Assembly (NCBI GenBank): GCA_036394315.1
Contig: DASWFI010000007.1
Location: 3,984 to 67,983, forward strand
Source: Patescibacteria group bacterium
GTDB taxonomy: Bacteria > Patescibacteriota > Doudnabacteria > UBA920 > O2-02-FULL-48-8
Length of the DNA: 64,000 bases
Reading direction: 5' to 3'
The position numbers and the translations under genes were made by a program. The notes under the pieces were generated by a model. That model had not been told where the DNA came from and ran no database searches. It saw only the letters and a program-made list of their open reading frames with translations. Positions within the stretch are counted from its first letter, which is position 1. Each line of letters opens with the position of its first letter. Shown piece after piece: positions 1 through 62,827 of this stretch.

Positions 1-702
1 TTTGCCCTGTATAGATTTAAACCAAATTTTTCCACCTGAAGCCTCAATGAAAGCTTTGGCAATAAACAACCCCAGGCCAGTGCCTACAGATTCTACTTTA
101 TAAACATTGCTGCCTCGAAAAAATTTATTAAACACTTGCGCTTGTTGATTCTTGGGAATACCCATGCCTGTGTCAGTGATCGCGCACTCTAAAGTTTTAA
201 GGTCATTTTCCTTGACCCGAAGATCGATCGTGACTTTGCCGTGTTGCGGAGTGTAGGCCAAGGCATTGTTAATGAGATTATTAAACGCCTGCTTGATCTT
301 ACTCGCTTCCGTGCGGACCACCGGAAAAGGCTCGTGTTCGACAGTGAAGGACACTTGCAACCCTTTTCTTTGGATTTCTTTTTCTTTCTCTTTAAGGAGG
401 CTACGGATAATCACGGTAAGATCAGTGGGCTGTAGATAGAGTTTGGTTTCCCCTTTTTCCACACGCGAAACTTCCAGCAAGTCATTCACCAGTGCAATTA
501 AGCGTTCGTTAAAAAAAACTGTTTTTTCTATATATTCTTTTTGTTTCTTGCTCAGGGGACCGGAGCTTGGCCGCTGGAGCAATTCCAGCATCCATTTCAT
601 GCCTGATAGCGGTGTTCGCAGTTGATGCGAAGCCAAGTTGGCGAAATCCGACGCAAAGTCGCCTTCTTTTTCTTTTTTTAACTTTGATCTTTTGCCTGCC
701 AT
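1..702 (-). CDS. Sensor histidine kinase lacking a sensor domain (HisKA + HATPase_c only); C-terminus truncated by the window edge
   Basis: Reverse-strand translation from ATG at 700-702: MAGKRSKLKK...HQLRTPLSGM (H-box)...NALAYTP (N-box)...DTGMGIP...GTGLGL (G-boxes). No TM or sensor domain before the H-box. The six-frame track missed it because no stop lies inside the window. Confidence 0.8.
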   Translation of the reverse strand, partial: MAGKRSKLKKEKEGDFASDFANLASHQLRTPLSGMKWMLELLQRPSSGPLSKKQKEYIEKTVFFNERLIALVNDLLEVSRVEKGETKLYLQPTDLTVIIRSLLKEKEKEIQRKGLQVSFTVEHEPFPVVRTEASKIKQAFNNLINNALAYTPQHGKVTIDLRVKENDLKTLECAITDTGMGIPKNQQAQVFNKFFRGSNVYKVESVGTGLGLFIAKAFIEASGGKIWFKSIQGK

Positions 703-3081: not shown

Positions 3082-3480
3082 TTATTTAGGCAGTTCGCCG
3101 CGTCGCTTCATCACGGTTTTAATTTTAGCCACCAATTCTTCCAAACGATAATTCGCCTTTACCAGGTAATCCATAGCTCCCAACGACAAAGCCTCTGAAA
3201 CTTTATCATAATCCGAGAGGTTGGTCAGAATCACCACCTGAATATCTTTTGTCTCCGGGTTTTCTTTCATCTGCTTGAGTGCACCTATCCCATCGAGTCG
3301 GGGCATGACTAAATCCAGCAGGATCAGATCGGGTTTTTCCGAAACGGCTTTTTCCACTCCTTCCATTCCATCCTTGGCGCCCACGACCTCAAAACCCTCT
3401 TGTTTCAGCTCCTCGCAAAGCGCGGTAAGCAAGATTTCCTCGTCCTCGACGATCAAAACCTTAATTTTTTTATCTACCAT
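3082..3480 (-). CDS. Stand-alone response regulator receiver domain (CheY-like)
   Basis: KVLIVEDE...LILLDLVMP...phospho-acceptor Asp context...ILTNLSD...K; 132 aa with no output domain. Confidence 0.85.
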   Translation of the reverse strand: MVDKKIKVLIVEDEEILLTALCEELKQEGFEVVGAKDGMEGVEKAVSEKPDLILLDLVMPRLDGIGALKQMKENPETKDIQVVILTNLSDYDKVSEALSLGAMDYLVKANYRLEELVAKIKTVMKRRGELPK

Positions 3481-3604
3481 ATTTTTGTGTCTTTTCTTGT
3501 TAAATTGACTGTAATATTATAGCATATACTGACTAAAAAGAAAAAACCCAGCTAATCTATCCCACGAACGACGAACCACCCCCTTATTAAAACCTACTAT
3601 CCAA

Positions 3605-3640
3605 AGAAAAAAGTCTTTGACTTCTATCAAAGACTTTTTT
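3605..3640. terminator. Bidirectional rho-independent terminator
   Basis: aaaaaAGTCTTTGActtctatCAAAGACTtttttt: a 9-10 bp stem flanked by an A-tract and a T-tract, directly 3' of the tRNA-Tyr 3' end. Confidence 0.7.
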
Positions 3641-3641
3641 C

Positions 3642-3912
3642 TGGTGGGGAGTGAAGGATTTGCACCTTCGAAGGCTAAAGCCAGCTGATTTCATTTTTTC
3701 CTAAGGTTTCCCAAAGGCATGGACTATATCATCACCATTTCAGGTGTTCCAGTATCTAGTCTCTACGGGCTCTCTTTTGGAGATTCCCACGGTATTGGCT
3801 TGGCTTTCGCTTTAGCGTTCACCGTTATCCTGGAATGTTCATCTTGAAGTTTCCCCCAAGAGCTGCAATTGTTCTCACAGTCAGCCCCGTTTGACTACTT
3901 CGGTAACTCCCC
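3642..3912 (-). tRNA. tRNA-Tyr(GUA) precursor interrupted by a group I intron; exon 1 at 3877-3912, intron at 3692-3876, exon 2 at 3642-3691, CCA encoded
   Basis: Exons fold as a type II tRNA. Acceptor GGGGAGU pairs with ACUCCCC, A73, then CCA. Anticodon stem GCUGA/UCAGC and loop CUGU|AAA, giving anticodon GUA. T-arm is GAAGG-UGCAAAU-CCUUC, the same T-stem as E. coli tRNA-Tyr, and the variable arm is long. The intron sits between nt 35 and 36 of the anticodon loop. Confidence 0.72.
3692..3876 (-). ncRNA. Group I intron (~185 nt) inside the tRNA-Tyr anticodon loop
   Basis: The 5' exon ends in U and the intron ends in G (omega-G). P1 can form between exon CUGU and internal guide GCAG with U.G at the splice site. 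R-like element GUAGAGACUAGA and S-like element GAUAUAGUCC form P7 (GACUA/UAGUC). A P-like element AAUUGCAGC..GGGAAAC is present. Confidence 0.68.
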
Positions 3913-3936: not shown

Positions 3937-4010
3937 TGGAGCCCCCGGGTAGAATCGAACTACCGCCTACAGTTTACAAAACTGTTGTTCTGCCACTGAA
4001 CTAAGGGGGC
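3937..4010 (-). tRNA. tRNA-Thr(UGU), CCA encoded
   Basis: Reverse complement GCCCCCUUAGUUCAGUGGCAGAACAACAGUUUUGUAAACUGUAGGCGGUAGUUCGAUUCUACCCGGGGGCUCCA. Anticodon loop UUUGUAA, T-loop UUCGAUU, discriminator U73, one U-C mismatch at 7:66. Confidence 0.85.
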
Positions 4011-4036
4011 AAAAATTGCTAACAACTAATTTTATC

Positions 4037-4888
4037 TTAAATCTTAAGCCTCATCAACTTTTCACGGGCGGTTTTATTGCCCGGTTCAAGCGCCAGGATT
4101 TGTTCCAGGACTTCCTCTGCACGCACGTAATTTTCCAATTTCACATAAGCATCTGCCAGCAAGCTGAGGTAATTAACATTTAATTTATCCAGCTGGACCG
4201 CGGAAGAAAGGGCTTTTACAGCTTTGGTATAATCCTCCAGTGCTTCAAAGCACAGCCCCAAATTTACCCACCGCGTGGGTATTTTGCTGTTAATGCTCAG
4301 GGCTTTCTCGTATGCCTCTTTCGCCTTTTGGTATTCCTTCAGCGAATAATGCGACATTCCCAAATTGCTGTAATAAATATCTCTGGTCGGATCAAGTTTG
4401 ACCAGATATTCATAAGTCTGTACTGCATCAGCGTAATTTTTATTTTGCAGATACAATCTGCCCAGCGCCTCATAAGCTTCTCGATCGTGGGGATTTTTTT
4501 TAATCGCCGCCAGATAAAGATCTTCGGGGGTTTGGTTCGCGGAAGGCTTAATGCTCAACTCAGCCGCCTCAGGCAGCCACTGCGGATCGGCTGTAGAAGA
4601 TCTGATACGGATCCGAAAAGCGCTTTTCACTTTTTCGTATTGACTCTCAAAAGTTTTCGTGGCGGCGGGTTTCAAATCCTTCGCTTCCAAAATAAAACGC
4701 CAAAGCTTGTGAGCCACGATTCCCAACTTCTGCTTGATGTAAGGCCAAAGATCGTAATGATGAGTTGTCGTTGGTGTAATTCGCAATCGAATCTGCGGCC
4801 GGCTGTTAAGCTGGCCGAGTTTGAATAAAAACAAACTCACAGCAACCAAAACCGCGACTGCTAAAACAACAACTAAGGAGATAATCAT
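4037..4888 (-). CDS. Membrane-anchored TPR-repeat protein
   Basis: N-terminal hydrophobic helix, then repeated Y/A/L-rich 34-residue TPR-like units (AYEALGRLYLQNKNYADAVQTYEYLVKLDP...). Confidence 0.6.
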   Translation of the reverse strand: MIISLVVVLAVAVLVAVSLFLFKLGQLNSRPQIRLRITPTTTHHYDLWPYIKQKLGIVAHKLWRFILEAKDLKPAATKTFESQYEKVKSAFRIRIRSSTADPQWLPEAAELSIKPSANQTPEDLYLAAIKKNPHDREAYEALGRLYLQNKNYADAVQTYEYLVKLDPTRDIYYSNLGMSHYSLKEYQKAKEAYEKALSINSKIPTRWVNLGLCFEALEDYTKAVKALSSAVQLDKLNVNYLSLLADAYVKLENYVRAEEVLEQILALEPGNKTAREKLMRLKI

Positions 4889-4889
4889 C

Positions 4890-5477
4890 TTACTCCGCTC
4901 CGACTACGAACCGTGAAAATCTACGAACTTGGATGTTTTCGCCCAGTTTCGCCACTCTTTCAGCGATCAAGTCTTTGACTTTTTTCTCCGGCTCGCGCAC
5001 GTAAGGCTGGTCCAGCAGACAAACCTGTTCGTAATATTTTTCTAATTTGCCGGTGAGAATCTGCTCCTGCATATTTGCCGGTTTGCCTTTGATCTGCTCA
5101 GCGTAAATCTGTTTTTCGTTATCTATGGCATTCTGCGGCACTTCCTCGCGCGAGACGTATAAAGGCGAGGCCGCGGCTACGTGCAGAGCAATTTCCTGGG
5201 CCAATGCCTGAAAATCTTCATTTCTGGCCACAAAGTCAGTTTCACAATTAAGCTCCAGCAGTACACCCACTTTGCCGCCGGCGTGAATGTAGGAAGTGAC
5301 GATTCCCTCTTTCGTGGTCCTACTAGATTTTTTGGCAAGTGAAGCATGACCTTTTTTGCGTAAAATGGTTATGGCTTCATGAAAATCCTTTGCTTCTTGC
5401 AAAGCTTTCTTTGCATCCATCATTCCCGCGCCCGTAACATCTCGAAGTTTCTTAATATCTTCTGTTGTAATTTGCAT
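4890..5477 (-). CDS. tsf: Elongation factor Ts
   Basis: MQITTEDIKKLRDVTGAGMMDAKKAL... UBA-like N-terminus typical of EF-Ts, immediately downstream of rpsB. Confidence 0.9.
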   Translation of the reverse strand: MQITTEDIKKLRDVTGAGMMDAKKALQEAKDFHEAITILRKKGHASLAKKSSRTTKEGIVTSYIHAGGKVGVLLELNCETDFVARNEDFQALAQEIALHVAAASPLYVSREEVPQNAIDNEKQIYAEQIKGKPANMQEQILTGKLEKYYEQVCLLDQPYVREPEKKVKDLIAERVAKLGENIQVRRFSRFVVGAE

Positions 5478-6619: not shown

Positions 6620-7089
6620 TTACTGAATCCCGCCGTAGCCAAAGAAGAGTTTTCGCACATCCGGCGGTAGCCGTTTGGCGGGTTCGATACAGTTCCTCAC
6701 GAAGATATTCGGATGTGATTTCTGTCCCTCGAGAGGAGGTATAAACATTCCATTTTTCATCTTCTTCTCACTAAAAACGTGTGGAGACTGACGTCTTCCA
6801 TTGATGTAGATGACAGTATTGGAACTGGTATCACCACGCTGTTCCGATGCGTTCAGTTGAAGGCCTTTGCGATCTTTCAGAACGAACACACTGCAGCCTG
6901 GAATTGAGTAGTACGGTCTTTCAAAGATCTTGAGTAATTCTTCACTCCTCAGATCCTCGACTTTCCACTCCTGTGCCTGTGTTTCGACCACGCGCACGTT
7001 TGTCGGCGCCCTCGGAGGATTCGGCTTCCGCGTCTGCTCACCGGTCAGGGCCAGAACTGCCACGAGAACGATCAACACATGAGTCATGA
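6620..7089 (-). CDS. Small secreted hypothetical protein with a signal peptide (start chosen at MTHVLIV..)
   Basis: The track ORF is 6620-7129. The ATG at 7087-7089 is preceded by GAGGTG and followed by a hydrophobic signal sequence MTHVLIVLVAVLALTG. Confidence 0.5.
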
Positions 7090-29918: not shown

Positions 29919-30009
29919 TGGCGGAGAGAGTGGGATTCGAACCCACGGGACGGCTATTAACCGTCGCAGGTTAGCAACCTGCTGCCTTAAGCCACTCGGC
30001 CATCTCTCC
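29919..30009 (-). tRNA. tRNA-Ser(GCU), type II, CCA encoded
   Basis: GGAGAGAUGGCCGAGUGG...GCAGG-UUGCUAA-CCUGC...long variable arm...GUGGGUUCGAAUCCCAC-UCUCUCC-G-CCA. Confidence 0.9.
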
Positions 30010-62446: not shown

Positions 62447-62827
62447 GGGGCTGAATTGATTCGACAGGTGTTCCTTCAAAATCACAGCAAGTCCGATTAG
62501 CCTAATCTCTCGGTTAAAAAGAAAAGGTAAATCATAAATGCCAAAAATTTGGTAAGCAGATTCGTGAATGCTTTTGCATTCTCACCTGCTATGGTTGCTG
62601 CTTAATTAAGTAACAACCCATCAGCCTTTCGGTGTTCTTCCGAAAGTACCTGGTGTTATATTAAGAACTTACTTTGATCGGTACTCGACGATCAAAAGGA
62701 CATTTAGAGCAACCTTAAACTGTTTTCGTTTCGCTTCTATAGTTTAAGATAAACAAGCGAAACTAAACTTGTAGAAGTGGCTTTGAAAAACTCTTGGACG
62801 GGAGTTCACTGCTCCCCAGCTCCACCA
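62447..62827 (+). ncRNA. ssrA: tmRNA (SsrA)
   Basis: 5' GGGGCUGAAUUGAUUCGACAGG matches the canonical GGGGCUGAUUCUGGAUUCGACGGG. 3' GGACGGGAGUUCACUGCUCCCCAGCUCCACCA matches E. coli GGACGCGGGUUCAACUCCCGCCAGCUCCACCA. The G3:U70 pair and A73 are present. A tag ORF ends ...SPAMVAA and is followed by UAA. Confidence 0.82.

Follow-up and report, generated by a model that had tools for sequence, protein, structure and literature searches.

A tRNA-Tyr(GUA) gene of Patescibacteria divided between anticodon nucleotides 35 and 36 by a compact, probably self-splicing group I intron

Introduction

Among the sites at which group I introns interrupt transfer RNA (tRNA) genes, the one between anticodon nucleotides 35 and 36 (the 35/36 site) is enriched in Patescibacteria (Nakagawa et al. 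2026, mSystems, PMC13011429). Here we describe a further gene of this kind, a tRNA-Tyr(GUA) gene on the minus strand of a 64,000-nucleotide stretch of Patescibacteria DNA (assembly GCA_036394315.1, contig DASWFI010000007.1, positions 3,984 to 67,983). This whole stretch is hereafter called the window, and all coordinates are given within it.

Precise self-splicing in vitro has been reported for two 35/36 introns, one in a tRNA-Asn (GCA_016700035.1) and one in a tRNA-Asp (GCA_001029755.1), while Table 1 of the same study lists a single tRNA-Tyr(GUA) case at this site, from Candidatus Doudnabacteria GCA_016699995.1 (PMC13011429). That study placed 25 of 28 introns at 35/36 in subgroup IA and left IC without any tRNA intron from Patescibacteria; the classical bacterial tRNA introns are assigned to IC3 (PMC13011429). 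Two-base shifts were found to mislead both ARAGORN and tFind for Asn and Asp, and neither the guide sequence of these introns nor the C32-U33-G34-U35 target which their hosts share is discussed (PMC13011429). The tFind preprint raised the number of interrupted tRNA classes in bacteria from 4 to 21 (Williams 2020, bioRxiv 10.1101/2020.01.27.920355). tRNAscan-SE 2.0 names only fMet and Ile2 introns.

The split gene in the window is thus one more member of a class already published in 2026, with one tRNA-Tyr case included. From its sequence and that of its relatives, we consider it very probably to be a functional tRNA-Tyr(GUA) gene, whose 35/36 site holds a compact group I intron that lacks an open reading frame and would splice itself. 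What our analysis adds is modest: the occurrence of the tRNA-Tyr-hosted form in at least 64 species-level genomes, where a single case had been published; evidence that it has diverged together with the host tRNA; an intron family common to Tyr, Asn and Asp; and a tRNA elbow variant, A18/G55, whose two members covary.

Results

Read on the minus strand, on which all features of the gene lie, the locus (3912..3642) comprises three segments of 36, 185 and 50 nucleotides (nt): exon 1, GGGGAGUUACCGAAGUAGUCAAACGGGGCUGACUGU (3912..3877); an intron that begins GAGAAC and ends AAAAAAUG (3876..3692); and exon 2, AAAUCAGCUGGCUUUAGCCUUCGAAGGUGCAAAUCCUUCACUCCCCACCA (3691..3642). An earlier note on this DNA, made from the sequence alone, had proposed the same three segments, and the sequence bears out each of them. 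Exon 1 supplies the 5' strand of the acceptor stem, a D arm with an A18 variant D loop, the 5' strand of the anticodon stem and nucleotides C32, U33, G34 and U35. Exon 2 (AAAUCAGC...ACUCCCCACCA) continues with A36, A37 and A38, the 3' strand of the anticodon stem, a long variable arm, a T arm with the loop UGCAAAU, the 3' strand of the acceptor stem, A73 and CCA.

Joined in silico, the exons give an 86-nt tRNA-Tyr(GUA) with the long variable arm of type II tRNAs. ARAGORN reports this 86-mer as tRNA-Tyr(gta) with a 7-base-pair acceptor stem, G3-C70, A73 and CCA, in agreement with the note's reading of a split type II tRNA whose anticodon loop, once restored, is CUGUAAA. The spliced tRNA has the same T stem, GAAGG/CCUUC, as Escherichia coli tRNA-Tyr, as had also been claimed; taken as a whole it shares 76% identity with the E. 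coli molecule over 98% of its length, and exon 2 matches annotated phage tRNA-Tyr genes. Both the sequence and the spliced tRNA place the insertion point between U35 and A36, as the note had it, and not at the 34/35 site of the classical tRNA-Leu introns. With introns allowed, ARAGORN calls the unspliced locus tRNA-Tyr(gta) i(37,185); by default it calls nothing there, nor does Rfam at its gathering thresholds. A transfer-messenger RNA (tmRNA) identity, against which the note had argued, was rejected: the acceptor stem carries G3-C70, splicing restores a full anticodon arm, and a genuine tmRNA lies elsewhere in the window, a standard one-piece gene (62447..62827, plus strand; RF00023, 120.9 bits) with the predicted tag peptide AKNLVSRFVNAFAFSPAMVAA.

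The group I intron model of Rfam (RF00028) matches the intervening sequence at 3886..3700 over its full length (model positions 1-253), with 34.6 bits and an expectation value (E) of 3.8e-7 on 601 nt, or 4.1e-5 on the whole window. The earlier note had named a match to this model as a check on its group I reading and its absence as a refutation; the match obtained is significant, though sub-gathering, so that this refutation does not arise. The two R/S-like elements of the intron fall on the most conserved stretches of the model, AGACUA and GAUAUAGUC. At 185 nt (3692..3876), the intron has no room for a homing endonuclease gene.

Relatives were sought with a pattern built from the intron core and the tRNA-Tyr 3' exon (TAGAGACTA, gap, ATATAGTC, gap, GAAATC), which has a single match in the window and none in 100 shuffles of it; with 64 independent genomes showing the same architecture (below), the arrangement is far from anything expected by chance. 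A scan of one-genome-per-species bacterial and archaeal contigs returned 89 loci, where approximately 16 matches were estimated to arise by chance. The intron mode of ARAGORN gave inconsistent isotypes and boundaries on these loci and was dropped; each upstream U was instead tried as the 5' splice site, and the spliced product was tested by intron-less tRNA calling. In this way 64 loci were resolved as tRNA-Tyr(GUA) genes with the identical insertion site and introns of 182-237 nt, exon 1 being 36 nt long with CUGU at its end in 62 of them and 35 nt long in the other two. No second tRNA-Tyr was found within the window, and no intron-less copy in the 8-kilobase (kb) locus of any relative.

The hosts are mostly Patescibacteria (Magasanik-, Moran-, Doudna-, Yanofsky- and Saccharibacteria, Peri/Peregrinibacteria and others). 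Several of the loci come from third-party annotation (TPA) metagenome-assembled genomes (MAGs) titled uncultured Gammaproteobacteria (L008, L019, L042, L050, L063, L072, L076, L077) or Bdellovibrionales (L060, L062, both of which also share the tsf/rpsB/prfA neighbourhood). Their tRNA-Tyr introns and exons are near-identical to those of Magasanikbacteria or Moranbacteria MAGs, so these labels are probably wrong and the contigs probably belong to Patescibacteria. In three further loci (L064, L070, L076) the same gene is damaged or runs off the end of the sequence analysed for that locus. In L064 (minus strand, match 6903..6982), exon 2 of the intron-bearing tRNA-Tyr stops after the variable arm (AAATCTGCTAGCTCCGCCTTCCTAGG) and unrelated sequence follows, as would be seen in a truncated pseudogene or at an assembly join.

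Membership of the window intron in this family was assessed with a leave-one-out nhmmer profile of the 64 relatives, which it matches end to end with 141.9 bits (E = 3e-44). Global pairwise identity was abandoned as a family test in favour of this profile, a Nostoc tRNA-Leu having reached 78% over aligned columns. Of 18 relatives tested, seven pass the RF00028 gathering score (53-62 bits), the Doudnabacteria locus L067 included, so that homologues as well as the full-length match uphold the assignment to group I.

A model of helices P1 to P9 was derived from the window sequence and held against an ordinary, not structure-fitted, MAFFT alignment of the 65 sequences, with controls in which the 3' partners were slid by 1-3 columns. 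In the model 93.6% of cells pair, as against 35-45% in the slid controls, and 31 of the 51 modelled pairs have changed on both sides. With a covariation score of 0.389, compared with at most 0.109 after sliding, and with none of 500 shuffles reaching any of the observed measures, covariation lends the model strong support.

The 5' strand of P1, exon CUGU with intron GA (3875..3880), pairs with the internal guide sequence UUGCAG (3868..3863), setting the 5' splice site between 3877 (U35) and 3876. The earlier note had given P1 as CUGU/GCAG: its U.G pair at the splice site stands, and is found in 65 of 65 family members, while its length must be corrected from four base pairs to six. Both intron-side pairs covary, with AU, GU, CG, GC and UA all observed, and the GCAG of the guide is invariant in all 65 sequences, an invariance not forced by the search pattern, in which GCAG is absent. 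P7, the expected guanosine-binding helix, is formed, as in the note, by GACUA (3757..3761, within the conserved GUAGAGACUAGA) and UAGUC (3722..3726, within GAUAUAGUCC), which align to the conserved AGACUA and GAUAUAGUC of RF00028, and it is pseudoknotted with P3. The fifth P7 pair covaries in distant published tRNA introns, where GACUU/AAGUC, GACUC/GAGUC and GACUG/CAGUC take the place of GACUA/UAGUC. The last intron nucleotide is the omega-G anticipated in the note (3692), the 3' splice site lying between it and 3691; the U before it is likewise invariant, and this was not imposed by the pattern.

Among the remaining helices, P2, P3, P4, P6, P8 and P9 are supported by both-sided changes. P2 (CUUGGGG-GAAA-CUUCAAG, 3843..3860) closes on a GNRA-type loop and pairs in 96.7% of cells, all seven pairs changing on both sides. 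In P3, UUCCAG (3830..3835) pairs with CUGGAA (3752..3747) in 100% of cells, with both-sided changes at five of six pairs; P8 (CACC-UGAAAU-GGUG, 3733..3746) likewise pairs in 100% of cells, with three of four pairs so changed. P4 (ACGGUG/UACCGU; 99.7% of cells) encloses a reduced P5 (GCU/AGC and GC-GAAA-GC; 72.8% and 93.1%) at 3789..3825, the weaker figures for P5 arising because this region is length-variable and MAFFT-aligned. P6 and P6a (GGG..CCC and UCUC/GAGA, 3767..3788) come next, the window-specific changes in P6a being compensated. P9 (CCUUUGG-GAAA-CCUUAGG, 3700..3717) contains two internal U.U mismatches, pairs in 92.9% of cells and has both-sided changes at four of five modelled pairs.

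Subgroup IC3 was at first suspected from a resemblance to the Azoarcus ribozyme in GUAGAGACUAGA, the GAAA loops and a receptor-like CUAAG...UAUG in P5. The family profile could not separate the two candidate subgroups, giving 28 bits for an IC3-labelled and 22 bits for an IA3-labelled intron, and the core motifs, judged by eye only, are nearest the IA3-labelled example. Given this ambiguity, and with tRNA introns of Patescibacteria absent from IC in the published classification, we make no subgroup claim.

From these elements we propose the following course of splicing. Transcription would start from a promoter near 4057..4029, probably jointly with an upstream tRNA-Thr(UGU), and end at a hairpin at 3641..3601. 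The P1-P9 core would then fold, the guide UUGCAG pairing with exon CUGU and intron GA and setting U35 in the U.G wobble. An exogenous guanosine held at P7 (GACUA/UAGUC) would attack the bond after U35, between 3877 and 3876; the omega-G (3692) would next take over the site, and the 3'-hydroxyl of U35 would attack the bond between 3692 and 3691. CUGU would thereby be joined to AAAUC, restoring the loop CUGUAAA, and ordinary end-processing would yield the 86-nt tRNA.

The history of the intron appears to be bound to that of its host gene. Divergence in the intron core and in the exons is correlated across the family (Mantel r = 0.525, 0 of 2000 permutations), and by both measures the window gene lies closest to L075 and L067. 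This correlation, together with the rpsB-tsf-TPR neighbourhood shared with Doudnabacteria loci, points to an intron long resident in tRNA-Tyr and inherited mainly by vertical descent. Near-identical contigs occur in Joint Genome Institute (JGI) sample 3300002917 and in SRR10360644. A search of phages gave only fragmentary matches, the intron core matching unannotated stretches of several phages, and no phage origin for the intron-bearing gene emerged from it.

The flanking genes are rpmE, prfA, rpsB, tsf, a TPR protein and a response regulator. Their proteins best match the Doudnabacteria loci L067, L075 and L074, at 55-68% amino-acid identity and in the same gene order. As judged indirectly, from these genes and from the tRNA exons and introns of a window that contains no rRNA gene, the host is a member of the Patescibacteria, nearest Candidatus Doudnabacteria. 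On the same strand, a tRNA-Thr(UGU) gene with encoded CCA (3937..4010; ARAGORN; 63 bits with RF00005) precedes tRNA-Tyr by exactly the 24-nt spacer given in the earlier note, which likened the pair to thrU-tyrU. The basis of that analogy is the E. coli operon thrU-tyrU-glyT-thrT-tufB. Among the 64 relatives the same tRNA-Thr lies 18-62 nt upstream of tRNA-Tyr in 12, an arrangement that is recurrent and not universal.

A promoter-like site (TTGATG, 17 nt, TAAAAT; 4029..4057, minus strand; a consensus match only) precedes tRNA-Thr, and a consensus scan of the spacer found no promoter-like or terminator-like site. Directly after the CCA, where the note had placed a terminator, stands an intrinsic-terminator-like hairpin with a U-tract (3601..3641, minus strand; -21.5 kcal/mol, z = -5.96, 0 of 200 shuffles as stable), which the consensus scan missed because its stem has too few G-C pairs. 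Given this succession of promoter-like site, uninterrupted spacer and terminator-like hairpin, co-transcription of tRNA-Thr and tRNA-Tyr is plausible. The stem consists of an A-run and a U-run flanking GUCUUUGA/UCAAAGAC, and its plus-strand equivalent also has a U-tract, so the hairpin could terminate transcription in both directions. The next minus-strand gene downstream is the response regulator (3082..3480), in the same direction as the tRNAs.

In the window's other four tRNAs the T loop is canonical. A sub-threshold Rfam match to Plastid-psbl-rps4 (29922..29974, plus strand; 43.2 bits against a gathering score of 68) is exactly antisense to tRNA-Ser(GCU) (29919..30009, minus strand) and almost certainly arises only because that model contains tRNA-like sequence.

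The remaining loci returned by the scan comprise tRNA-Arg(UCU) introns, introns in 23S rRNA-like flanks, two intron-like cores of no recognisable host and three matches put down to chance. The tRNA-Arg(UCU)-flanked introns occur in Acidobacteriota (L005, L020, L024, L029, L034, L047, L057, L059, L068, L082, L083) and, outside that phylum, in Parasphingorhabdus (L021) and Saprospiraceae (L032). Several have long coding-like inserts upstream of the core, possibly homing endonuclease genes, and the GAAATC of the pattern sits in their extended P9 region, off the splice site. Group I cores whose flanks read as conserved 23S rRNA (GGTACGCGAGCTGGGTTCA.ACCGT...GTGAGACAGGTTGGTCTCCTATCT) were seen in L043 (approximately 45..382) and L069 (minus strand, approximately 5060..5396), and possibly in L018 and L053. 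Those of L043 and L069 have the appearance of rRNA introns from Patescibacteria MAGs and share the CUAUAUCGGUG...AAUACCGAGGGAA style of core.

Discussion

Several observations weigh against a functional, self-splicing tRNA-Tyr gene and should be set beside the evidence above. Firstly, the window intron falls short of the curated RF00028 gathering score of 50 bits, an operational cut-off and no biological feature. Secondly, the window copy has the reduced P5 and the two U.U mismatches in P9. Thirdly, its T loop carries G55 in place of a near-universal U55. Fourthly, the search pattern itself demanded P7 and omega-G, so their invariance in the family set lends them no independent support. Fifthly, the in vitro precedent is limited to two distant 35/36 introns, which score 21-32 bits on the family profile. 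Lastly, the census of tRNA-Tyr genes covers only 64 kb of this genome. Three alternative readings draw on these and other points.

The first, which we regard as improbable, accepts the group I intron as genuine but supposes that its splicing in the cell needs a protein cofactor or particular conditions (guanosine triphosphate (GTP), magnesium, temperature), its role being mainly that of a regulatory gate on the supply of tRNA-Tyr. The intron has indeed persisted in many strongly reduced genomes and diverged in step with its host tRNA, but retention is equally well explained by the difficulty of deleting it precisely from the anticodon loop of an essential single-copy gene. The compact periphery of the window copy might reduce its autonomous stability, yet related 35/36 introns splice protein-free in vitro. 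While RNA-level regulation has been raised as a possibility in a published perspective, the sequence indicates no cofactor or sensor element.

A shade less probable again is that the locus is a pseudogene, a tRNA-Tyr inactivated by an intron that does not splice, with tyrosine decoded by another copy elsewhere. Our view of the genome is confined to the window, which leaves room for such a copy, and no family member tested scores lower on RF00028 than the window intron (34.6 bits, where seven relatives reach 53-62), which also has the reduced P5 and the P9 mismatches. Decay, however, is not what the sequence resembles. At seven sites the window differs from a nucleotide that at least 90% of the family share, and five of the seven departures are compensated on both strands of a helix, among them a change from G-C to A-U in P3 that is unique to the window and two from C-G to U-A in P6a. 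All 51 modelled pairs are canonical and all family-invariant core nucleotides are retained, and promoter-like site, terminator, CCA and syntenic context are all intact. Because the departures are mostly compensatory, the fold has remained under purifying selection, and the gene is therefore very unlikely to be a pseudogene.

The non-canonical T loop, on which the earlier note is silent and which would also suit a pseudogene, deserves separate comment. The loop UGCAAAU (3662..3656, minus strand) reads U54-G55-C56, with G55 for U55, followed by A57, and the D loop AAGUAGUCAAA (3899..3889, minus strand) has A18-G19, with A in place of G18. Of the 65 intron-bearing tRNA-Tyr genes, 54 have the canonical form of both loops and 11 the variant form of both (the window and L009, L023, L039, L046, L051, L067, L071, L075, L088 and L090); no gene combines the two forms. 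The pattern looks like tertiary covariation of the G18:U55 elbow contact. Since the variant occurs only in paired form, A18/G55 is to be regarded as a conserved, covarying alternative and not as a defect, and it leaves the tRNA-Tyr assignment unaffected.

Scarcely credible is the third reading, in which the intron lies at another position of the anticodon loop and the mature tRNA is not Tyr: ARAGORN's intron mode did return Ser, Asp or His for many relatives, and a 5' site shifted by two bases, a kind of shift documented in the literature, yields spurious 'Leu(taa)' calls, but a U before the 5' site and a G at the intron 3' end coincide for the 35/36 boundaries alone (a shift loses one or both and also alters the mature tRNA), P1 covariation fixes U35 as the wobble partner, the spliced product bears the hallmarks of tRNA-Tyr and matches its phage and E. 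coli counterparts, and 64 of 64 relatives give Tyr(gta) with the same boundaries.

A functional tRNA-Tyr gene with a self-splicing intron thus accounts best for these data. The anatomy of the gene, the homology of its intron, the covariation of its helices and the selection on its fold were observed directly in this analysis; catalysis, co-transcription and splicing in the cell are what we infer. The number of relatives suggests that the tRNA-Tyr-hosted intron may be far commoner than the single case among complete genomes implies. In annotation pipelines that lack intron-aware checks, such genomes would seem to be missing an essential tRNA, which would lower their completeness scores.

A wider proposal is more tentative, and on balance we think it unlikely. 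A single intron lineage with the GCAG guide may have colonised several tRNAs that share C32-U33-G34-U35 (as seen in Tyr, Asn and Asp), moving by guide-directed reverse splicing without a homing endonuclease, and its GTP-dependent splicing may gate tyrosine decoding. If this were true, an intron in what is possibly the sole tRNA-Tyr gene of many Patescibacteria could provide a crude control by growth state in organisms that have lost most of their regulators. The picture of how such introns work is unchanged by our findings.

Comparison with described systems

The closest described counterpart is the tRNA-Tyr intron of GCA_016699995.1, with which the window shares the host tRNA, the 35/36 site, the intron family and the candidate lineage. 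Compared with the Table S3 sequence of that gene, the window gene shows 83.6% identity over aligned columns; the two introns score 149 bits (GCA_016699995.1) and 141.9 bits (window) on the family profile and have in common the GCAG guide and the core motifs GGGAUAACGGUGAA, CCGUAGAGACUAGAUACC and AAGAUAUAGUCCA. They differ in approximately 16-20% of their sequence and in length (192 nt against 185 nt in the window). In the window P5 is reduced and the P2 loop is without the insertion of the published copy, and the tRNA has the A18/G55 elbow variant where GCA_016699995.1 has the canonical GG and UUCGAAU.

The published Asn and Asp introns at 35/36 occupy the same position after C32-U33-G34-U35, with U before the 5' site and omega-G at the end, in a different host tRNA. 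Two of them, in Asn GCA_030583765.1 (136 bits) and Asp GCA_023898525.1 (135 bits), belong to the same sequence family as the window intron, whereas the two validated in vitro, Asn GCA_016700035.1 (21 bits) and Asp GCA_001029755.1 (32 bits), are only distant relatives. By our own reading, the former of these appears to have extra helices between P7 and P3 that are missing in the window intron. The classical tRNA introns, found in Leu(UAA) of cyanobacteria at 34/35, in fMet at 33/34 and in Ile2 and Arg at 36/37, stand further off: insertion site, host tRNA and the sequences of J3/4-P4 and P6 differ from those of the window, and they reach 7-28 bits on the family profile. The tFind catalogue recognises U/g introns at position 4 of the anticodon loop, such as Asn.4Ug, and called the published tRNA-Tyr case at 35/36 correctly.

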